Shown here piece by piece: positions 21,525 to 45,693 of a stretch of 64,000 nucleotides of DNA. Source of the stretch: Alphaproteobacteria bacterium (GTDB lineage: Bacteria; Pseudomonadota; Alphaproteobacteria; UBA7985); the NCBI GenBank assembly GCA_965661545.1, contig CBFIEF010000004.1:1831-65830 (forward strand), given 5' to 3'. The position numbers were made by a program, and so were the translations under genes. The notes below the pieces were generated by a model, which saw only the letters and a list, made by a program, of their open reading frames with translations, did not search any database and was not told the DNA's origin. Position 1 is the first letter of the stretch. Every line of letters begins with the position of its first letter.

Positions 21525-22898
21525 ATGTATGAGTCGAGGTTTGGTTTCATGGACCGCTGGTTTTCCTTAGCAAGGCCACTTTTGATCGGGTTGAGCTTCC
21601 TGTCCTTGGGTGCTTTCACTGCGTGTGTTGAAACGACATACGCGACGATGGACGCAGAGGTCACGACGACCACTCAGACGGAATCAGCCTATCGCATGAT
21701 TATGACGCCCAACGGTTTGCGCGTCATCACGCCAGAAGGCTACCTGATTGACCCACAGCAAACGCCTGCGTCCGTCGACGTGACCCAGCTGGAGCCCGCG
21801 AAGCCCCCTGTGATCGCGATTTTGCTACCGCTAACCGGTTCTTTGGCCGAAATCGGCGAAGCAATGAAAAACGGGGCGGAGCTTGCTATTAAAGACAAAG
21901 GCATTGCCGGCACCTTTGAAACCCGTATCTACGACACCCGCTCCGACAATTCTGGGGCTCAGGCTGCAGCCGCAGAAGCATTGCGCGACGGAGCAAAATT
22001 GATCCTTGGCCCCCTGCGCGGTGACGCCATTTCCCCCGTATCCCGGATGGCCGCGCGTCAGCGCGTTAACGTGGTTAGCTTTAGCAATGACATCACGCGC
22101 GCTACGCCAAACGCTTATATCATGGGCATTACACCGGAAGCCGTAACCAAGCGCGTGCTTGAATATTCCGCACGTCGTGGTCAGCGGCGCATTGCTATCG
22201 TTGCGCCAGCTGACACCTATGGCCAGGCTGCTGCAGATGCAGCAAACGGTTTGGCACGCTTCGTTGGTGCTGAAATTGCGCTGACCGAAACCTACCCTTC
22301 CGATCCTCAAGATCGACCAGGCCGAACGGCAGTTGCGCAATCAGTGGGCCAGCGTGCTGATATCTTTGATGCAATCTACCTGCCCGATACCGCCGAGGCA
22401 GGTGATATGGCGTCACTCCTTTACTTCTACGGTGTAGATCCAAGTCGGGTGCGCTATCTGGGCGTGCCGATTTGGGACCAGCAAGCCAACCAACTCATTT
22501 CCGAACAAGCACTGCTGGGCGCAGTTTATGCGTCACCCGCCGAACGGGGGTTTGGAGCTTTCCAGGCGTCGTTCAAGTCTGTATTCAATAAAGATCCTCA
22601 CCCGCTGTCCTCTGTCGCCTATGACGGCGTCGCGATGGCGCTTGAACTGGCGGCACGCGGACCAGCGGTCCAGTACTCGACCTCTGAGCTAGAGCGGCCA
22701 CAGGGCTTCAACGGTGTTGACGGTCCATTTGCACTGCGCTTTGACAAGCGTGTCGAGCGAGGAATGGCCATCAAGCGCATTAGCAGCGTCGGTCTGGAAT
22801 TGGTGGAAGATGCCCCGGCAACTTTGTACCGCAGCACCGCTTCAGCGATGGCCGTTCAACAGCAAACCACCACTTCCCAATCACTCTTTAATCAGTGA
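21525..22898 (+). CDS. periplasmic-binding-protein type I fold lipoprotein (penicillin-binding protein activator / LivK-like family)
   Basis: Lipobox LGAFTAC; Peripla_BP_6-like region (…AILLPLTGSLAEIGEAMKNGAELAI…). Confidence 0.5.
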   Translation: MYESRFGFMDRWFSLARPLLIGLSFLSLGAFTACVETTYATMDAEVTTTTQTESAYRMIMTPNGLRVITPEGYLIDPQQTPASVDVTQLEPAKPPVIAILLPLTGSLAEIGEAMKNGAELAIKDKGIAGTFETRIYDTRSDNSGAQAAAAEALRDGAKLILGPLRGDAISPVSRMAARQRVNVVSFSNDITRATPNAYIMGITPEAVTKRVLEYSARRGQRRIAIVAPADTYGQAAADAANGLARFVGAEIALTETYPSDPQDRPGRTAVAQSVGQRADIFDAIYLPDTAEAGDMASLLYFYGVDPSRVRYLGVPIWDQQANQLISEQALLGAVYASPAERGFGAFQASFKSVFNKDPHPLSSVAYDGVAMALELAARGPAVQYSTSELERPQGFNGVDGPFALRFDKRVERGMAIKRISSVGLELVEDAPATLYRSTASAMAVQQQTTTSQSLFNQ

Positions 22899-23353
22899 AT
22901 GGCCGTTGCCGCGGAACAGGCCGTGCAAGCCCCCACGCACGCAGGTTATGCGACCAAGCGTCTGATGCGTGACATCAGAGCTTTTTGAGTTCTCACGCCC
23001 CCAAATTTTGACCAAAAACGGCAACATTGTGAGGCTTAAATTAAGGCACTTGGGACATTCTGACGGCCTTACCCTCAGTTTCCAGAGCTTTTGTCTATAA
23101 ACGGGAAAACACATGAAGGCTGGATTTTCGTTAAAATTGTTCGTAAAATTTTAAAAACGATGTTTTCCAATAGGTTAAATCAAATTCTTCTTGCATGAGT
23201 TTAAACCCTTAGGTACATACCGTCGTAATAGCGCGACGTTTTAAGCGTCCAGCGAGTAATTTTATATCCCTACAGGGACGCCTGATCGAACTGATACCTC
23301 AATTTTCGGGGTGGATTTCAGGCAGAGCTGTAAATCGATTTGGAAACGAGAAT

Positions 23354-26044
23354 ATGCATTCGATTTTAAATGCCAAAAGCGAATTTACGCCCAAAAAGCG
23401 TTCCCTTTTAAGAGCAGGACTTTACTCCGCTGTCGCTGGAAGTGCCTTCATTGGTAGCGAAGCACTCAGCCACACAGTTACGCTAAACGCTGACGGCTCG
23501 ACGGCAAGCGGTCCTTTATATGGAGGTGACTCCGGCACCTCTGTCCCGCACGTTCACCCAGGCTCTAATGCCGAAATCAGCAGCGCTAGCTTCAGCAGCA
23601 GCACGAGTGGTTTCAGCAACCTCGAAGCACTGCCCACCACACGGGGCAGCGCCGAGCCGGGCGTCGTGAACTTCATTGGTGAGCTTGAGCCAATTACACC
23701 AATTACTGAAGTGCAACGTTGGGCCTCTGGCCAGACTGCGTCGACTTCACCCATTTATTTCCCAACGCAGCAAACCCAAACGACCCAAGTGACCCTGCTC
23801 AATCCTGAGCAGCAGGTACAGATTGGTGACGTCGAAACCAGCGTTGAGACTAAGAACTTCCGCAACATTCAAACCGCTGTGGAAAGTACCGAAAAACTCG
23901 ACGACGGCAGTTTGTCTCTGACGTTGAAAAGCGGTGAACTCATGACCGCTGCGGCCGGCGACTACGCCTTTAACGGCGGCGATGTTTGGCTCGCATCCAA
24001 CATTGCGGGCGATCTTGGTACAATCACCGAAACAACCTCTGTGCTTTCTCGTATCTACGGCGTTGGCGGTGGTTGGGGTCTCCCCGTTGCAGAAGGCATT
24101 TTGGGCGTTAGCGCTCTGGGCCTGGGCGCAGCCGCGGCGACCGGTAACCTTTCCAACCCATTCGCTAACGATGGTGAAGACGGAGCTGATGGCGCAGACG
24201 GCGCCGATGGAGCTGACGGAGCAGACGGCTCCGGCGGCGATGGCGACGGCAGCAGTGACGGCGAAAGCGGTGATGGAACCGGCGATGGCTCAGATGACGG
24301 CACTGGCACGGGTGACGGCACAAGCGGCGAGGACGGCGAAGACGATTTCATCGACGACGGTAGCGATCCTGATTTTGAAGTGACCAACACTGATCCAGAG
24401 AACCTGGGCCCAACGGCCCTGACTTTCAGTCAGTTCAGCAACGCTAGCGGAAGTTTCGATCTCTTTGAAGCTGACAGCGCAGTTGGGGTACTGAGCGCAA
24501 GCGATCCGGAAAACGATGACCTGATGTACCGCATCGAGTCTCAACATCTTGGTTCTGAGATCACGAACATCTTCGAAATCAACGAAGATGGTCAGCTTAT
24601 CATTACCGAGCGGCTGGATTACAGCCAGCCCGGAAACGATGCAGATGGCACGCGGTTTGACCAGAACACAGCAACCGTTATGATTGAAGTTTCCGATGGA
24701 TCCGCACTGACAGACTTCCGTACTTTTGAGTTTACGATCAGCAACTCAACAGACGACGATGGTCCGTTAGAGTACGTTCGCGAAGCCAACATCACCCGTT
24801 TGAAGTTCAATGGCCTCAACAGCACCAGCTCCGGCGCCGCTGACAGTACCGACTGGCTCCCATTCATGGACGAGGCCGAATACCACCACAATTTGGATGG
24901 TGGCCAGGACATGATCGCGTCTTTCCACTCCGAAACCGAACATGCCTTCTCCGTTCACGAATTAACGGGCACGGGCGGTTTCTCGAACACACAAAACTAT
25001 TCGACCAACAGCACCGAGATTGATGCTGAGTACCGCATTCATGAGGTTCGGGCGCTCGACATGGATGACATTGACGGCGATGGCTACACTGACATCGTTG
25101 TTGCTGGCAGCGGCGGCACCAACGGTACGGACTCTGTGGTGCAGATTTGGGAAGTGGGTAAGTCAGGTGAATTCACCTTTAAGGCCGCAGACAAGGATTC
25201 TGAACCTTCACAGGTAGAAGACGTCGTGATTGGCCATTTTAATTCAAACAATGCGTCCAAAGAAACCTCCGCAACAAACATGAAAAAGGTCATGGTTATC
25301 GGCGGCGGAAACGACGACACCGCAGCCGAAGATGCCTTGTATTCGGTTTACTACGACGATCTTGAATATGCCTTCAACTCGGAGCAGCTCCAGGGCGGAT
25401 GGAACTTTGGCGAAGTTGAGAGCATCATGATTAACGACACTGAATACGCTGTTGGTACGTACGGCACCAACGGTGGTGACGGTATCAGCATGGTATTCTT
25501 GGGCGAGGGTGACTCGCAGGACGGCATCGTGAGCGCAGGCACGGGCATTAGCCACAACGACGTTGCGGTCATTGGCAACGTCGTGTTCACGGCGACCGAT
25601 AAGGGCGTTTACTACAGCAAGGCCTTCCACTCTGGCCTCGATGCCCCTGAAGCGCTGTCGATCACCAATGAAGGCCTGCACATCGCGGATATCAAAGCGA
25701 GCCAGATTGAGGCGGGTAACTTTGACGGGGATGATGATCTGGAGCTAGCGGTCCTCGACGTTCTGGATCAGACGCCGATCATTCGCTTCTTCGATGTCGA
25801 CTTGACCAACCCACAGGTTGTCACCCAGATGTTCGTCTCTGAGCCTGTTCCAGGTGCTGTTGAGCTGCAAGTGATCCCGAGTTCGATCGAATTGGCTGAT
25901 CGCGATGATGGTAACATCGATGCGGACGAGCTGCTGGTTGGTATAAACGAAGCCGGTACGGCGTCTTACCTCAATAGTGACGGTGAGAGCATTTCACAGA
26001 CGTGGAACGGCTCTATCATCTTCTATGATGATACGTCCCTCTAG
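23354..26044 (+). CDS. large surface/secreted adhesin-like protein with acidic (GAD)n tract, cadherin-like domain and FG-GAP/VCBS repeats
   Basis: 896 aa; cadherin-like '…ASDPENDDLMYRIESQ…INEDGQLIITERLDYSQ…'; FG-GAP 'DMDDIDGDGYTDIVVAGSGG', 'GNFDGDDDLELAVLD'; preceded by a 450-bp AT-rich leader. Confidence 0.75.
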   Translation: MHSILNAKSEFTPKKRSLLRAGLYSAVAGSAFIGSEALSHTVTLNADGSTASGPLYGGDSGTSVPHVHPGSNAEISSASFSSSTSGFSNLEALPTTRGSAEPGVVNFIGELEPITPITEVQRWASGQTASTSPIYFPTQQTQTTQVTLLNPEQQVQIGDVETSVETKNFRNIQTAVESTEKLDDGSLSLTLKSGELMTAAAGDYAFNGGDVWLASNIAGDLGTITETTSVLSRIYGVGGGWGLPVAEGILGVSALGLGAAAATGNLSNPFANDGEDGADGADGADGADGADGSGGDGDGSSDGESGDGTGDGSDDGTGTGDGTSGEDGEDDFIDDGSDPDFEVTNTDPENLGPTALTFSQFSNASGSFDLFEADSAVGVLSASDPENDDLMYRIESQHLGSEITNIFEINEDGQLIITERLDYSQPGNDADGTRFDQNTATVMIEVSDGSALTDFRTFEFTISNSTDDDGPLEYVREANITRLKFNGLNSTSSGAADSTDWLPFMDEAEYHHNLDGGQDMIASFHSETEHAFSVHELTGTGGFSNTQNYSTNSTEIDAEYRIHEVRALDMDDIDGDGYTDIVVAGSGGTNGTDSVVQIWEVGKSGEFTFKAADKDSEPSQVEDVVIGHFNSNNASKETSATNMKKVMVIGGGNDDTAAEDALYSVYYDDLEYAFNSEQLQGGWNFGEVESIMINDTEYAVGTYGTNGGDGISMVFLGEGDSQDGIVSAGTGISHNDVAVIGNVVFTATDKGVYYSKAFHSGLDAPEALSITNEGLHIADIKASQIEAGNFDGDDDLELAVLDVLDQTPIIRFFDVDLTNPQVVTQMFVSEPVPGAVELQVIPSSIELADRDDGNIDADELLVGINEAGTASYLNSDGESISQTWNGSIIFYDDTSL
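24182..24350 (+). repeat. in-frame 9-bp tandem repeats (GGNGCNGAY)n encoding GADGADGADGADGADG followed by a degenerate G/D/S/T-rich tract
   Basis: ggagctgat ggcgcagac ggcgccgat ggagctgac ggagcagac … seen directly. Confidence 0.7.
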
Positions 26045-26068
26045 GACGAATGCAGGTGTGAGCTGCGA

Positions 26069-26530
26069 CTAAACCTTGTAGCCCATCCACTTTTTGACGG
26101 TGCGAAGGATCAACTTTGACTCGATTCGTGTCACGCCGGGCATATGGGCGATTTGGCGGTGCACTTCTTCATAGTGCGCCGTATCCCGAGCCGACACTCG
26201 CAGGGAAAAGTCTGCTTGGCCCGCCATCAAATAGCACTCCAAAACCGATGTATTATTCCCAGCTGCGCGTTCAAAAGTTTCGAGGTCTTCTTCGGCTTGA
26301 GAATGCAGAGACACATCAACGATAAAGTGCAGGTCCAAACCAAGCGATTTGGCATTAAGCCGCGCCGCATAGCCTTCGATGACGCCAGCGGTCTGCAGCT
26401 GCAAGACGCGGCGGTGGCAGGCGGACGAAGACAGGCCAACCTTTTCGCCCAACTCCGCCATGGATAACCTGCTATCCTTCTGCAGGGTCGACAAAATAGC
26501 GCGATCAATTTGATCTAAATCGGCTGTCAT
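26069..26530 (-). CDS. Lrp/AsnC family transcriptional regulator
   Basis: Start at MTADLDQIDRAILSTLQKDSRLSMAELGEKVGLSSSACHRRV…; HTH plus RAM domain. Confidence 0.85.
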   Translation of the reverse strand: MTADLDQIDRAILSTLQKDSRLSMAELGEKVGLSSSACHRRVLQLQTAGVIEGYAARLNAKSLGLDLHFIVDVSLHSQAEEDLETFERAAGNNTSVLECYLMAGQADFSLRVSARDTAHYEEVHRQIAHMPGVTRIESKLILRTVKKWMGYKV

Positions 26531-26590
26531 CCCAAAACCTCTCCCATTTCCGGCGGACCTTCGCAGATTTTCCCGCAACATGGCAAGGTA

Positions 26591-41446: not shown

Positions 41447-43741
41447 TTAGAACGGCAGAGGAATCTCCAGGCCATTGATGTTGAGCGCCTCACCCGCAGG
41501 AATATCGATCACAAACTCCAGCGCACCGTCATCGGTCGGCGTGCCAAACATCGACGCGCCAAACAAGCCCTCAAGCACTTGCTCGATTGTTTGCGCAGTG
41601 CCAGGGAAGGCATCAACTTCGCCACTTTCAATCGCCATCATCAACTCGATAAGGTGCGCCTGCGCTTCCGCGACGCCCAACATCGTCATCGTGATCGAGC
41701 CAACCGAGTAATTCGGCGGCAACATTGGATTGATGGCCACGGTCCCGGACGCTGTCGCCTCAACCTTGCCGCCACTGATGTACGAGGGCTGCACAACCAA
41801 CGAAGGCGGGGACGCCAAAATCGGAGAAATCAGCGCCGCGCCGGCCAGCAACAGCGATGACGGATCAAAATCCGGGTCTAGCATTGTGTCCACCGGCGGC
41901 AGCGGAACATTGCCCGCGATGGCCAAAATCATCGCCATGGGAATATCCGCAAGTTCGATCGTAAGACCTGCGTCCGTCGGTAAGAACCCCGGCTTGTCGC
42001 TACCGAGCACCAACTCGACCAGCACAGGATCAGCCACCTCGTCTTCGATCTCAGCCTGAAGGCCTGCGAATGATACGTGTTGCCGGATTTTAGCCTGATC
42101 GGTCAGCATATCGTGTGTTGTAAAGCTGATATCGGCAGCAGCTAAAGCCCCAGAAATCTCGCCCGTGTCAGCCGCAGTATTGGCGTAGAAAGACGCGTCT
42201 TTCAAACCCACCCTCAAGCTGGGTAAGTAGCTGCTGAGTGCAAACCGAAGCGCGTCAGCCAGCGTGAGATCATCGTTCTCCAAGCCCAGCACAATCTCCG
42301 TGATGCTGGTCAAGCTGTCGCGGATACTGTAGCCGGCGGAAAGCTCACCAAACGAGAAACCAATTTCCTCTGGCAATTCAACGTTAAACCCCAAGAGCCG
42401 CGCTGTCAGATCCTGCACGTCGCTGTCTGGTTCAAAGTTAAAGCTGGTCCCCAGCTCAGCGCCTGACATCGAAACTCTCAGCCGTTCGTCATCGCTCTCT
42501 GGCAGTTCAAGGCTCGCACCATCGAGCCTCAGCGCAAAATCACTGGCCGTGAGAACATCCGCACTCCATGCCAGTATCTTCCCACCAACACTCAGGTACA
42601 TGTCGATCAACACATCTTCGGGCTGGTAGAAATCTTCAGCCTCCATCATCCGCACTTGCGCAGACAGATCGGCGAGTGCGTCCGCTAGGGGGTCTAAGCC
42701 ATAGTCCGGTGTATAGGTGGTGCTGCCAGACAGCGATCCACCTTGCATATCCAAGAGACTGAATTCTCCGCCCGCACCAGACCAGTGGTCATAAACAATC
42801 AGCTGCAACTGCCCCAGCATGCCGGTCGTACTGGCTATTTTCGCTGCGTGGTCATAGGCCGTTTCAATCGAAAGGCCATCGAATTCCAGTCGTCCGTCAA
42901 AGTCCAGCAAGTCCACATCGTTCAAGGATAACTTGCCCATCTCAATGCTAGAATTGAGATCCTGCAATTCAGTGTCAAACAGGGGAATAAACCGGTCAAT
43001 CAGGTTTGCCGCGGCGTCCGCTGGCGAGGTGATTCCGGCTTCAAACATCGCGAACTGCTTGAAACCTTCATTGATTTCACGCTGCAAAAACCAATCTGGC
43101 GTGTTCACTGTTTCAAAGGAAAACCCAAAGCTCTCAAGGGATCCAATCTTTGCCCCATCAATCGCGGCAGAGAGGTCCATAATCGTAAAGTCAGCTCCAC
43201 TAAGCGGGTTCTGTTTCCGCTCATCAAAGAGGAAGTTGAGCGCGCCAACCTTTACATAATTTGCTTCTTCTGCGCCTGACTCTGCGAACAGCAAATCCTG
43301 AATGGTGAGTTCAAACCGTTCGGTCGCCTGCGCCTCCGGGTTGATGGTCATGCTGAGCTGAAACTCGGCAACTTCGAATGTTGTCCCTAATTCTGGGAGA
43401 AGTTCGATCAGCAGCTGTGCGAGATCCGTTGTCAGATTCAAGGAACCGTTTTCTGCTTCCGTGGCCTCAAAGGACAGATCACCCAGCGGCAACCCGTCGA
43501 TATTGGCGTCGGCCATCACCACGTCGAAAGCAGCCCCATCTCCGTCACCGTCTAACACCGTGAGCGTTTCATATTCGATGGGCAGCCCAAACAACAGAGG
43601 AACGGGCAGATCCTCCATGGACGTTAAAACCGTCGCGACTTGCGCCGCGGTCATGGTTTGAGACTGGGCTTGCGTGGCAAACGACGTCCCAAAAGCGGCG
43701 ATACACATCAACGCTTTAAGGTGTTGGAATGGCTTTTTCAT
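41447..43741 (-). CDS. large secreted acidic hypothetical protein (paralog A; possibly DUF2125-like)
   Basis: 764 aa; signal peptide MKKPFQHLKALMCIAAFGTSFATQAQS; Leu/Asp/Glu/Gly-rich; C-terminal '…LEFVIDIPAGEALNINGLEIPLPF' resembles the C-terminus of the downstream paralog. Confidence 0.6.
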   Translation of the reverse strand: MKKPFQHLKALMCIAAFGTSFATQAQSQTMTAAQVATVLTSMEDLPVPLLFGLPIEYETLTVLDGDGDGAAFDVVMADANIDGLPLGDLSFEATEAENGSLNLTTDLAQLLIELLPELGTTFEVAEFQLSMTINPEAQATERFELTIQDLLFAESGAEEANYVKVGALNFLFDERKQNPLSGADFTIMDLSAAIDGAKIGSLESFGFSFETVNTPDWFLQREINEGFKQFAMFEAGITSPADAAANLIDRFIPLFDTELQDLNSSIEMGKLSLNDVDLLDFDGRLEFDGLSIETAYDHAAKIASTTGMLGQLQLIVYDHWSGAGGEFSLLDMQGGSLSGSTTYTPDYGLDPLADALADLSAQVRMMEAEDFYQPEDVLIDMYLSVGGKILAWSADVLTASDFALRLDGASLELPESDDERLRVSMSGAELGTSFNFEPDSDVQDLTARLLGFNVELPEEIGFSFGELSAGYSIRDSLTSITEIVLGLENDDLTLADALRFALSSYLPSLRVGLKDASFYANTAADTGEISGALAAADISFTTHDMLTDQAKIRQHVSFAGLQAEIEDEVADPVLVELVLGSDKPGFLPTDAGLTIELADIPMAMILAIAGNVPLPPVDTMLDPDFDPSSLLLAGAALISPILASPPSLVVQPSYISGGKVEATASGTVAINPMLPPNYSVGSITMTMLGVAEAQAHLIELMMAIESGEVDAFPGTAQTIEQVLEGLFGASMFGTPTDDGALEFVIDIPAGEALNINGLEIPLPF

Positions 43742-43848: not shown

Positions 43849-45693
43849 TCAGCGCTGATTGAGCGGTGCGCCGTTGAGGTTTATCTCACCGAACTGTGTC
43901 AGCTCGAGCACGTACGTCTGCTCGTCTGCATTTGAAGCTGTGCCAAGATCGCGCAACCGCTCGGCCCATCCGGCGATGCGGCGGCCATAGTCTGCTAGAC
44001 CCTGCGCGTCCTCACCACCACTGGTCAAAGCGGCCTCTGTGGTTGTATCGGCGCGGCGCTCTACTTTGGTCAGGCCCTTCACACTCGCGGTGAAACTGCC
44101 AAAACCGAACAACGGCGGAATGGGCATGACCTGATGTTCACCAACGATGGTCATGGTGTAGTCATCGGCCACGACCTGGGCGTCTGTGACGCTGACACGA
44201 GGGGGCTGGATCAGGAACGGCGTGACCATACCCAGCGCACCGCCGACCAGCGAGCGGGCGAGAACACTGGGTTCGTTCACTGATCCGGCGCGTGGCAAGC
44301 TTTCCAACGTTTGACGCAGGTTCGCCATTGGCAAGCCGGTGACTTCAACGGTGCCTTCAAATTCGTTGGGAACCAGACTTTGTGACAGGGGGTCAAATCG
44401 GATCAGACGACCGCCCAAAGCCGGGACGATGCTGGGGATCACAATCGGCTCTGGCTCAACACCCTTTGGCGATTCCATTGCGCGCAAATCGATACCGTTT
44501 GCTTGGCCACGCAAGGTGATGAATCCGCCATCAATCCGCATGTCCGTCAAACCCAAGGCGCCCTGTGCCTGCTCCATCGACAAGGAGAATAGGCGGTCCG
44601 GCAGCGCAAAGACCAAGTCTTCCGCCATCCCCTCGAAACCAATGGTATCAAAGAAAAGCAGTGTATCGGCCAAAACAGACCAATTCGCACCAGCCTCAGC
44701 TGGTTTAAACAGCGAACCAAGTGCCAACGCGAAGCCTTCGACATCAGCGCCATTCAGATCAATGTTCAGCGCGCCGCGCTTCATCCCGGCAAAGTCTTCG
44801 CGGCGGCGGATATCCAAACCATCGAACACGATGTTGACCATCTGGGTTTTAAGGGCGTCGCCCTGTGACGACGCAGGCAAAGAGAAACCGTCGAGTGCGA
44901 CTTCAAGATCCTGCGGGCCATAGAATGCGTTTAGGCCTGTGACCTGTAAATCGGTAAACGATGAAGCCGCCGGCAGATAGAGGTTTTCAAGGTGAACCAG
45001 AGTGGCGCCCAGCAGGCTGTCATTCCCCTCATTTCTTGCGTCGAGAAACCGGAAATCAAACGAGCGTCCGAGACTGGCATAGGGCGCACCCGCCGCGCTG
45101 CCTGTCCAGCGCCCATCGTAAATGATGTTCTCTATCGCAAAGGCGTAACTGGTGTCTGGGTCGCCTTCTTCCGCTGGCTTTGCGCCGCCGGAACCAGTCA
45201 GGTTTGACAGGCGCAGCGAATAGCCACTTTCATCTGCGCGCATGACCACTTCACCCGCACCCAGCCGAAGACCATTGGGCGCGGCAAGCGCTAAATCGGT
45301 GATGCGATATTCGAGCCGTTGATACCCTTTAATCGCATCGTTCCATTCGCCCGCAAAGTCCCACTGTGCTGCTTGCACGCCGGATCCGTCAGGGTTGGTG
45401 ACGCGCGTCGGCATTTCAATGCTTTTCACGTCGAAAATACTGTCGCCCAAGGCGCGAATATCGATGCTCACCAACCCCACGGGAACAGAGCCGTAGCTTG
45501 CGTCTTTCAGCGAGACGGTGTTGCTGCGCACAAACACGTCCTCAGCATCAAATGCCAACGGACCAAAGAGGCCGAAGTTGTGCCCTAACTCGGACCGAAC
45601 AACCTGCTCCACGCTTTGCGCTGAAACGCTTGAAACAGTAACCAGTGTGATGAACGATGCGGCGGCAAGTTTGCCAAGGCGAGAAAGGAACAA
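43849..45693 (-). CDS. large secreted hypothetical protein (paralog B; possibly DUF2125-like)
   Basis: 614 aa; signal peptide MFLSRLGKLAAASFITLVTVSSVSAQS; C-terminal '…YVLELTQFGEINLNGAPLNQR' similar to paralog A. Confidence 0.6.
   Translation of the reverse strand: MFLSRLGKLAAASFITLVTVSSVSAQSVEQVVRSELGHNFGLFGPLAFDAEDVFVRSNTVSLKDASYGSVPVGLVSIDIRALGDSIFDVKSIEMPTRVTNPDGSGVQAAQWDFAGEWNDAIKGYQRLEYRITDLALAAPNGLRLGAGEVVMRADESGYSLRLSNLTGSGGAKPAEEGDPDTSYAFAIENIIYDGRWTGSAAGAPYASLGRSFDFRFLDARNEGNDSLLGATLVHLENLYLPAASSFTDLQVTGLNAFYGPQDLEVALDGFSLPASSQGDALKTQMVNIVFDGLDIRRREDFAGMKRGALNIDLNGADVEGFALALGSLFKPAEAGANWSVLADTLLFFDTIGFEGMAEDLVFALPDRLFSLSMEQAQGALGLTDMRIDGGFITLRGQANGIDLRAMESPKGVEPEPIVIPSIVPALGGRLIRFDPLSQSLVPNEFEGTVEVTGLPMANLRQTLESLPRAGSVNEPSVLARSLVGGALGMVTPFLIQPPRVSVTDAQVVADDYTMTIVGEHQVMPIPPLFGFGSFTASVKGLTKVERRADTTTEAALTSGGEDAQGLADYGRRIAGWAERLRDLGTASNADEQTYVLELTQFGEINLNGAPLNQR

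Follow-up and report, generated by a model that had tools for sequence, protein, structure and literature searches.

In the 64,000-nucleotide stretch of Alphaproteobacteria bacterium DNA analysed here (contig CBFIEF010000004.1; hereafter the window), the open reading frame (ORF) at 23354-26044 on the forward strand encodes a protein of 896 amino acids (aa). Taken together, the findings below make it rather probable that this is a lineage-restricted, Sec-exported, Ca2+-type binding protein of the cell envelope, whose gene has its own promoter and a structured 5′ untranslated region (UTR). In the proposed arrangement, a cleavable signal peptide would direct Sec export and be followed by a family-specific N-terminal module (aa 40-235). 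A hydrophobic glycine-zipper helix would then tether the protein in the membrane or drive oligomerisation, and a flexible poly-acidic (Gly-x-Asp)n stalk of strain-dependent length would emerge from it. A single cadherin-like immunoglobulin-like (Ig-like) domain would lie between the stalk and the head, a distal, degenerate FG-GAP (integrin-alpha-like) propeller of seven blades and the likely site of ligand binding or adhesion. The gene would be transcribed alone from a sigma-70-like promoter ~135 nt upstream, and a set of hairpins (P1-P2-P3) in the ~127-nt 5′ UTR would most likely control translation or mRNA stability. Our confidence is much lower for the ligand of the protein and for the orientation of the helix.

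Conservation and domains of the 896-residue protein

The ORF is a real, core gene, vertically inherited at a fixed chromosomal position. An earlier note on this DNA had pointed to it, and the ORF and all protein strings quoted there were present. Orthologue pairs showed strong purifying selection on the coding sequence (ratio of nonsynonymous to synonymous divergence, dN/dS, 0.02-0.2), with dS saturated (>1). The syntenic position was identical in each of the related marine alphaproteobacterial contigs (15+), the order at each locus being IleRS, RibF and IspG (reverse strand); an LppC/LpoA-like gene; the target gene; AsnC/Lrp, TauE and EamA (reverse strand); and isocitrate lyase. This synteny held across orthologues down to 55-60% identity. 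The protein matched nine clusters among 5.8 billion, all from marine metagenomes and none of the nine named, and an orthologue has been deposited under the name 'Uncharacterised protein [Rhodospirillaceae bacterium]'. The species-representative genomes with the gene were uncultured marine Alphaproteobacteria metagenome-assembled genomes (MAGs) labelled Alphaproteobacteria, Rhodospirillaceae or Geminicoccus sp.; a metagenome scan contributed two further loci only, and a literature search gave nothing specific to the family.

At one locus (L016 6001-8641; MAG JAYQIC010000007), the orthologue frame was broken, leaving a 630-aa ORF, and one P1 pair was disrupted. This copy is either a pseudogene or the result of an assembly or polishing error.

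The coding sequence and the predicted parts of its product are as follows.

23354-26044, forward strand: coding sequence of 896 aa, isoelectric point (pI) ~4.05, 17% Asp+Glu, no Cys
23354-23470, forward strand: signal-peptide-like N-terminus (aa 1-39), five Lys/Arg in residues 1-20, Ala/Gly/Ser-rich h-region, A-L-S↓H site
23471-24058, forward strand: N-terminal module (aa 40-235), a Ser/Thr/Gly-rich, poorly conserved part, then a conserved beta-rich domain (aa ~141-235)
24059-24145, forward strand: putative internal hydrophobic glycine-zipper helix (aa 236-264), GGGWGLPVAEGILGVSALGLGAAAATG, top hydrophobicity segment in every family member
24146-24364, forward strand: acidic low-complexity stalk (aa 265-337), hypervariable in sequence and length, containing (GAD)5
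24365-24754, forward strand: cadherin-like Ig module (aa 338-467), motifs SDPENDDLMYRI, LDYS and NSTDDDGP
24755-26041, forward strand: degenerate FG-GAP-type beta-propeller region (aa 468-896), strands at aa ~507-890

The earlier note had assigned a cadherin-like domain and FG-GAP/VCBS repeats to the protein, and had named a domain search without cadherin or FG-GAP hits as the result that would speak against it. Literally, this was the result obtained with Pfam. The window protein gave no match to Cadherin at the gathering threshold, none to FG-GAP (PF01839) or FG-GAP_3 (PF13517) at E<=10 and none to VCBS; Pfam and NCBIfam together returned only a sub-threshold BBS7 beta-propeller match and YccE/XAC2610 noise. 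Among the orthologues, sub-threshold scores were observed for Cadherin (best orthologue 22.8 bits against a cut-off of 28.8, at the consistent position aa ~358-434), FG-GAP (20.6 against 22.1) and FG-GAP_3 (21.9 against 26.9, at the DIDGDG region).

Remote homology of both C-terminal modules was found by a profile search. When a profile of aa 338-896, from which the low-complexity linker was omitted, was searched against 1.84 billion (1.84e9) representative proteins, 40 proteins were obtained at E<=1e-3. The part at aa ~361-467 matched P0019, P0022, P0023 and P0028 (E 1e-17 to 1e-10), which are large multi-repeat proteins with Pfam Cadherin scores of 34-533 bits and Cadherin/Cadherin_4/Big_9 arrays. 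As judged from these sequence matches, the cadherin-like module is a remote homologue of bona fide cadherin-repeat proteins. The part at aa ~553-633 matched P0039, P0042, P0043, P0046 and P0047, which are strong FG-GAP_3/FG-GAP proteins (E 1e-5 to 1e-3). Furthermore, P0020 aligned globally at 34% identity, passed FG-GAP_3 at 33.8 bits and shared the C-terminal motif; the canonical FG-GAP loops of P0020 aligned with the four Ca-loop-like motifs of the propeller region (aa 569-585, 626-652, 787-802 and 852-864), of which, as read from the sequence, one is a canonical DxDxDGxxD loop (aa 572) and three are degenerate (aa 627, 789 and 852).

The predicted structure was consistent with these matches. 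An AlphaFold2 (AF2) model of aa 338-896, for which the alignment was enlarged with P0058-P0060, had a predicted local distance difference test score (pLDDT) of 65.9 and a predicted template modelling score (pTM) of 0.63. It consisted of a 7-strand Ig-like sandwich for the cadherin-like module (pLDDT 55-79) and then ~28 strands, the propeller reaching pLDDT 70-87 in many blocks. The blade count was read from the strand list of this moderate-confidence model, and ~28 strands fits seven blades of four. Foldseek with the model gave 304 PDB matches at E<=1e-3; the best 50 of the 304 were essentially all chains that contain a beta-propeller and the top matches were 7-bladed propellers. Among the matches listed were aldos-2-ulose dehydratase, PLL lectin, Ski8, LGI1-EPTP and the FG-GAP-type CRTAC1 (TMq 0.43). 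We therefore assign a seven-bladed propeller fold with moderate confidence, whose closing strand is probably the conserved C-terminus, IIFYDDTSL (26015-26041). The full-length AF2 model with 10 sequences was unusable (pLDDT 32.8) and had no Foldseek match below E = 0.095, and PDB sequence-profile searches with full-length, C-terminal and N-terminal alignments found no relatives. The adhesin-like domain make-up proposed earlier thus holds by way of remote homology. The cadherin and FG-GAP labels apply in kind, through that homology and the predicted propeller, whereas the curated thresholds were failed and VCBS was unmatched. The window protein is a divergent relative of cadherin-like/FG-GAP proteins, not a member by curated criteria.

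A remote sister family has the same architecture. Its members P0059 and P0060 (26-29% identical), named 'FG-GAP-like repeat-containing protein' by NCBI, are encoded in another genomic context, between a DUF3179 gene and pyruvate kinase (loci L019-L023). They contain, in order, a signal-like N-terminus with an AxA↓H site, an HxH-rich low-complexity region, a transmembrane (TM)-like helix, a short acidic linker, a cadherin-like module, an FG-GAP region and a terminal ...FYDDTSL. Their N-terminal regions are rich in His-x-His motifs, Pro, Met and Ala and are reminiscent of periplasmic copper sites. Their genes also lie behind a spacer of ~280-320 bp, without the P1-P2-P3 element.

The acidic stalk is the main strain-level polymorphism of the gene. 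The earlier note had described a perfect 9-bp tandem repeat that degenerates into a G/D/S/T tract. Indeed, (GAD)5 (aa 277-291; 24182-24226) continues as a Gly/Asp/Ser/Thr/Glu tract to aa ~337, but the repeat is not perfect: the five units (GGAGCTGAT, GGCGCAGAC, GGCGCCGAT, GGAGCTGAC and GGAGCAGAC) differ in synonymous codons, and Tandem Repeats Finder reported 73-88% matches. Sequence and length of the stalk differed in every orthologue. The suggestion that the tract could vary in length was borne out by five linker alleles (52, 53, 56, 60 and 64 aa) in one species-level cluster, in which no more than 4 of the 824 other positions differ. Loci L001 and L009 (99.4% DNA identity) differed by one 9-nt unit, and L003 and L011 (97.9%) by 24 nt. 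Linker length was uniform in the clade with an acidic but non-repetitive linker, and one MAG contig ended inside the acidic tract. All length variants were multiples of 3 nt and in frame. Since the units are codon-degenerate and the variants in frame, there is no on/off switching, and the perfect repeats of a contingency locus, which shift the frame or the promoter spacing, were not found. The variation is a spacer length polymorphism, not phase variation.

A natural 750-aa allele was also observed (L008 4939-7191, encoding P0009; also P0008). Relative to L012, it has a clean in-frame deletion of 393 nt at a 16-nt microhomology (GGCAAT..CAGAYGGC), by which most of the stalk and the cadherin-like module are removed. 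This allele was present in two independent assemblies, and the flanking DNA was 99.5-99.8% identical.

The upstream spacer and the predicted 5′ UTR

All orthologues have a long AT-rich spacer (317-459 bp) upstream of the gene. Its features in the window are given below.

22961-22988, forward strand: terminator-like hairpin and T-run (hairpin 22961-22979, 7-bp stem, loop of 5, GCTTTTTGAG tail)
22899-23162, no strand: unconserved distal spacer, identity to orthologues 0.18-0.52, at or below third-codon-position identity
23163-23178, forward strand: conserved upstream box TTTTCCAATAGGTTAA (consensus TTTTaCAGnnggTTAa), ~12 nt upstream of the -35-like hexamer, from conserved alignment columns
23191-23219, forward strand: promoter-like TTGCAT-N17-TACATA, with invariant TTG.AT and fixed 17-nt spacing in all orthologues
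23227-23353, forward strand: predicted 5′ UTR, ~127 nt, 125-129 nt in all orthologues
23280-23323, forward strand: putative nested hairpins P1/P2, from RNAalifold, pair counts and minimum free energy (MFE) folds
23331-23342, forward strand: putative P3, a 4-bp hairpin TAAA-TCGA-TTTG (23331-23334 with 23339-23342), from RNAalifold and pair counts

The proximal ~190 nt of the spacer were conserved beyond the identity at third codon positions (0.92 against 0.63, 0.72 against 0.46, 0.67 against 0.39 and ~0.48 against ~0.33). The earlier note had treated the whole as a 450-bp leader and had asked for its conservation among orthologues; this is true of the proximal part, whereas the rest is an upstream terminator-like hairpin and unconserved DNA. 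The hairpin follows the stop of the LppC/LpoA-like gene at 22898, and in the alignment the L005 orthologue had a canonical GC-rich terminator at the equivalent place. It appears to separate the two transcription units, and ~170 nt of unconserved DNA lie between it and the conserved part.

Several further sequences of the spacer and leader were considered. The LppC/LpoA-like gene (21525-22898, forward strand) of the subclade of the window and L001 is without the ~45-aa Thr-rich tail and the GGWIGxGENRVWVP motif of the other orthologues, and because of this loss of the C-terminal tail the spacer has ~110 extra bp (22899-23010). A direct repeat, TTCGTTAAAATTG x1.9, at 23127-23150 in the distal spacer is probably insignificant. 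The minus-strand ORF 22881-23114 was rejected as a gene, being not conserved. Also rejected was a 13-codon upstream ORF (MAPRRYTSFFNDL up to its stop) in the leaders of L002, L006, L008 and L016, at ~-115 to -75 from the ATG; its own ATG is ATT in L012, it is absent from the clade of the window, and it is probably non-coding.

The box at 23163-23178 is a candidate UP element or activator site. In the other clade, the promoter-like motif downstream of it reads TTGTAT-N17-TAnAnn. With A at position 6 of its -10 hexamer, 23191-23219 was not flagged by a generic promoter consensus scan. TTGCAT was also considered as a sigma-54 element and rejected, as there is no GG 10 nt upstream.

Within the predicted UTR, identity was 0.94, 0.67, 0.66, 0.54 and ~0.46, against 0.63, 0.46, 0.39, 0.41 and ~0.33 at third codon positions. 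P1 would be formed by GCCTGA (23280-23285) and TCAGGC (23318-23323), and P2, inside it, by TACCTC (23295-23300) and GGGGTG (23308-23313), which enclose the conserved loop AATTTTC (23301-23307). A Shine-Dalgarno-like GGAAACGAG (23342-23350) directly follows P3. The leader is conserved with covariation: in pair counts over P1-P2-P3, 95% of the cells were paired, compared with 86% in shuffles and 25-58% when the partners were slid, and both sides had changed in 6 of the 13 pairs overall, in 4 of the 6 in P1 and in one pair in P3 (95% paired). Alignments A3 and A10 were used for this analysis; the MAFFT alignments A6 and A9 were discarded since P1 was out of register. G-U pairs occurred in four sequences in P1, five in P2 and five in P3, and because of them the hairpins were placed on the sense (forward-strand) RNA. 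The nested hairpins recurred in independent MFE folds of six of the nine distinct orthologues. Single-sequence shuffle tests of P1 were not significant (7-85% of the shuffles were equally good), and for this reason we relied on column covariation.

A covariance model of the element (R1) scored 72-84 bits in every orthologous leader, with nothing else above 15 bits in 313 kb, and had no match in the loci of the remote family. Rfam gave no gathering-level match in the whole window; in 22850-23450 the sole match at E<=1 was a chance CRISPR-DR (20 against 35 bits). 'Kissing' between the loop and the Shine-Dalgarno sequence was left as speculation, as the complementarity is inconsistent across clades.

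Export, topology and competing explanations

The N-terminus had been called only weakly signal-like. Instead, its Lys/Arg residues, h-region, cleavage-like site and insertion free energy (dG ~+6, signal-peptide-like and not TM-like) make a reasonably good Sec-type signal peptide, and P0059 and P0060, the remote relatives, show the same n-h-c layout, their sites being AQA↓H or VQA↓E. The insertion energies given here, on a scale whose values are reportedly those of Hessa et al. 2005, are all approximate. A Tat signal was ruled out, since the twin arginine is not conserved and one clade has R-P. The N-terminal module contains an invariant PHVHP motif (aa 65-69; 23546-23560) and had no PDB, Pfam or homologue match beyond its own family, the search with its profile having returned only fragments of that family; AF2 reached a pLDDT of ~75 there for aa 167-222 only.

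The Gly/Ala-rich region of the earlier note is present and is better named a conserved hydrophobic glycine-zipper helix, as it is the hydrophobicity peak in every family member. It spans ~26 aa with 5-7 small-xxx-small spacings and aligns with the clearly TM-like LLLALGLAGMTGLAAMVLF of the remote relatives. Its insertion dG was ~-1.4 in these relatives, ~+2 in the orthologues and +4.5 in the window copy, which has E247. No Lys/Arg flank is found on either side, and the C-terminal flank is strongly acidic. At 24077-24094 (aa 242-247), the window copy has Glu247 inside the helix, while the 99%-identical L017 has Ala247 but Arg242; unlike other orthologues, each of these two copies has one charged residue in or beside the helix.

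Several points weigh against an exported binding protein with its own promoter and structured UTR. Under standard Sec rules, C-terminal domains that come after a signal peptide and an internal hydrophobic helix would remain cytoplasmic. Neither within ±6 kb nor among the large ORFs of the window did we find genes for secretion or anchoring partners. The protein lies below every curated Pfam and NCBIfam threshold, its full-length AF2 model is poor and its C-terminal model only moderate, and it appears to have a single canonical DxDxDGxxD loop. The promoter and the transcription start are read from conservation alone, and the RNA covariation comes from 9-10 distinct sequences of ~3 clades, whose relatedness may inflate it.

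The first of these points leads to a different topology, namely a type I bitopic protein in which aa 40-235 are periplasmic, the helix stops transfer and anchors the protein, and all that follows it (stalk, cadherin-like module and propeller) forms a cytoplasmic scaffold or signalling part. Besides the Sec rules themselves, the TM-like helix of the remote relatives and their His/Met/Pro-rich N-terminal regions, a composition typical of periplasmic metal sites, are in its favour. However, the lack of a Lys/Arg cluster after the helix and its acidic C-terminal flank are contrary to the positive-inside rule, and in the clade of the window the helix is only marginally hydrophobic (~+2 to +4.5). 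The protein also has an extracytoplasmic character (pI ~4, 17% Asp+Glu, a DxDxDG loop and no Cys) and, wherever cadherin-like and FG-GAP Ca2+ modules have been characterised, they are, to our knowledge, extracytoplasmic. A cytoplasmic location of the Ca-type domains is considered unlikely, and we give this topology a small probability. A smaller one is given to export by a type I (T1SS) or type V (T5SS) secretion system, in which the protein would be an RTX-type adhesin or an (inverse) autotransporter with the N-terminal module as outer-membrane anchor, threaded by the hydrophobic segment, its partners being encoded elsewhere. Such proteins would share with it the acidic Ca-type composition with an Ig-like extender and a head domain; in addition, the C-terminus ...IIFYDDTSL is strongly conserved and common to the remote family, and the conserved N-terminal part is beta-rich. 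Nevertheless, the protein contains no RTX nonapeptide (GGxGxDxUx) repeats and no Pfam or NCBIfam match to an Autotransporter or IAT_beta translocator. The absence of adjacent T1SS or T5SS genes, stated in the earlier note, was confirmed within ±6 kb and among the large ORFs of the window. T1SS substrates have no N-terminal signal peptide, a monomeric barrel would need more than the ~95 aa of the folded N-terminal part, whose profile had no match among PDB sequences, and in the model the C-terminal motif is a strand of the propeller.

Two further explanations concern the spacer. Its elements might act not as RNA, as in the structured-UTR reading preferred here, but as DNA operator half-sites for a factor such as the adjacent AsnC/Lrp regulator, whose gene is directly downstream of the target in every locus; the inverted-repeat form of the box at 23163-23178 and of the P1 arms is in its favour as well. 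We regard this as quite improbable, because the P1 arms are ~32 nt apart and carry compensatory substitutions while the sequence itself is unconserved, G-U pairs are tolerated only on forward-strand RNA, and P1-P3 all lie downstream of the promoter-like motif. The earlier note had proposed xenogeneic silencing, curved DNA or horizontal origin. In its full form, the gene would be a foreign adhesin gained horizontally, with a silencer-bound or curved AT-rich leader and a slippage-prone perfect repeat causing phase-like variation. Of all 450-bp bins in the window, 22899-23353 has the lowest GC, as had been noticed (0.41 against a mean of ~0.565), and the tract does differ in length between strains. 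However, the other true intergenic spacers of the window have GC of 0.43-0.47; this one is of ordinary intergenic composition and unusual only by its length, 455 bp. The gene itself (GC 0.543; GC at third codon positions, GC3, 0.604) is within ~1 SD of the 52 ORFs of the window (0.567 ± 0.020 and 0.636 ± 0.040). With normal GC and GC3 and a conserved synteny, horizontal origin and xenogeneic silencing are therefore unsupported. The clade-wide synteny with dS >1, the in-frame, codon-degenerate repeat units and a leader that is conserved proximally, where it behaves like RNA structure with G-U pairs, also stand against a foreign, silenced adhesin. This explanation is largely refuted, and we consider it the most improbable of all.

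Known counterparts, neighbouring genes and significance

The window protein resembles several known systems in part. Like FG-GAP/FG-GAP_3 (VCBS-type) propellers, such as those of integrin alpha, CRTAC1/ASPIC and bacterial FG-GAP-like proteins, its ~430-aa region is predicted to be a propeller of seven 4-stranded blades, DxDxDG-type loops precede hydrophobic strands (DMDDIDGDGYTDIVVAG and GNFDGDDDLELAVLD), and profile similarity is significant, a global relative (P0020) passing FG-GAP_3. Unlike these propellers, it and its orthologues score below the Pfam gathering scores, and the motif is recognisable in only ~4 of the 7 blades and canonical in one. The order of parts is inverted compared with integrin alpha, being anchor helix, stalk, Ig-like domain and then a C-terminal propeller, and UnbV/ASPIC, thigh and calf domains are absent. 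Bacterial cadherin-like domains (Cadherin PF00028, Cadherin_4 PF17803 and Big_9 PF17963) occur as extender repeats of giant adhesins and as the CHDL domains of Rhizobium Rap lectins. Cadherin-type acidic motifs include xDPExDxLxYxI, an LDY/RE-like motif and DDDxP at the domain end, which the window module resembles; the 7-strand Ig-like sandwich and the profile matches down to E 1e-17 are also shared. It differs in being a single copy and not a tandem array, in the sub-threshold score of its best orthologue, in a ~14-aa insertion (QPGNDADGTRFDQN) and in being dispensable in the natural deletion allele.

In the staphylococcal Clf/Sdr proteins, an acidic Ser-Asp (SD) repeat stalk lies between anchor and ligand-binding head. 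The analogy is functional: both stalks are acidic, of low complexity and codon-degenerate, with in-frame length polymorphism among strains. The present stalk consists of Gly-x-Asp or Gly-x-Gly-Asp tri-/tetrapeptides and not Ser-Asp dipeptides, has no homology to the SD stalks, is much shorter (52-70 aa) and belongs to a Gram-negative host with no LPXTG sortase anchor. The T1SS RTX adhesins (LapA, MpIBP and FrhA type) are likewise acidic and Ca2+-type, with Ig- or cadherin-like modules and a distal binding domain, whereas the window protein, without RTX nonapeptides or linked T1SS genes, is much smaller, starts with a signal peptide and contains a single Ig-like module. Transmembrane glycine zippers are known, for example, from the N-terminal GxxxG region of VacA. 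The likeness, a Gly/Ala-rich hydrophobic segment in a predicted Sec-exported protein, is compositional only, and the segment is internal here and not N-terminal in the mature protein.

In the neighbourhood of the gene, 24 bp (26045-26068) separate its stop from that of the convergent AsnC/Lrp-family gene (26069-26581, reverse strand). No terminator-like hairpin was found in a scan of 26045-26068, and the transcripts of the two genes may overlap. Elsewhere in the window, two adjacent ORFs on the reverse strand (41447-43741 and 43849-45693) encode acidic proteins of 764 and 614 aa (pI 4.05 and 4.47), each with a classical signal peptide and neither matched by Pfam at 1e-5. The two are weakly paralogous (22% identity over ~110 aa) and not related to the target; probably they too are envelope proteins that lack annotation.

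The gene is neither foreign nor silenced, and its product is a variant, specific to this lineage, of familiar adhesin-like domain types, which will be no major surprise to specialists. Two features are modestly novel: a signal peptide and an uncharged internal helix are conserved together, and the 5′ UTR holds a candidate new RNA element. There is some chance, though not a large one, that both go further, namely that P1-P2-P3 is an undescribed 5′-UTR RNA and that the protein, with P0059 and P0060, represents a class of 'inverted integrin-like' envelope receptors. P1-P2-P3, in which the AAUUUUC loop is invariant, could have a ligand, a protein or a small RNA as its binding partner or sense temperature, and would be dedicated to one surface-protein gene. 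In the receptors, the signal peptide and the helix with uncharged flanks may place the cadherin-like module and propeller head outside by a non-standard topology or secretion route.

Uncultured marine Alphaproteobacteria have many unannotated envelope proteins, and here the curated models miss a divergent cadherin-like and FG-GAP propeller protein, from which a new family model could usefully be seeded. The structured, gene-specific 5′ UTR may be a new regulatory RNA, which can be put to the test, and the signal peptide with an uncharged internal helix, kept in two distant families, is a small, concrete puzzle of topology or secretion. Furthermore, the stalk-length alleles and the domain-deletion allele point to diversifying pressure on the surface structure, plausibly from recognition by phages or grazers or from particle attachment.

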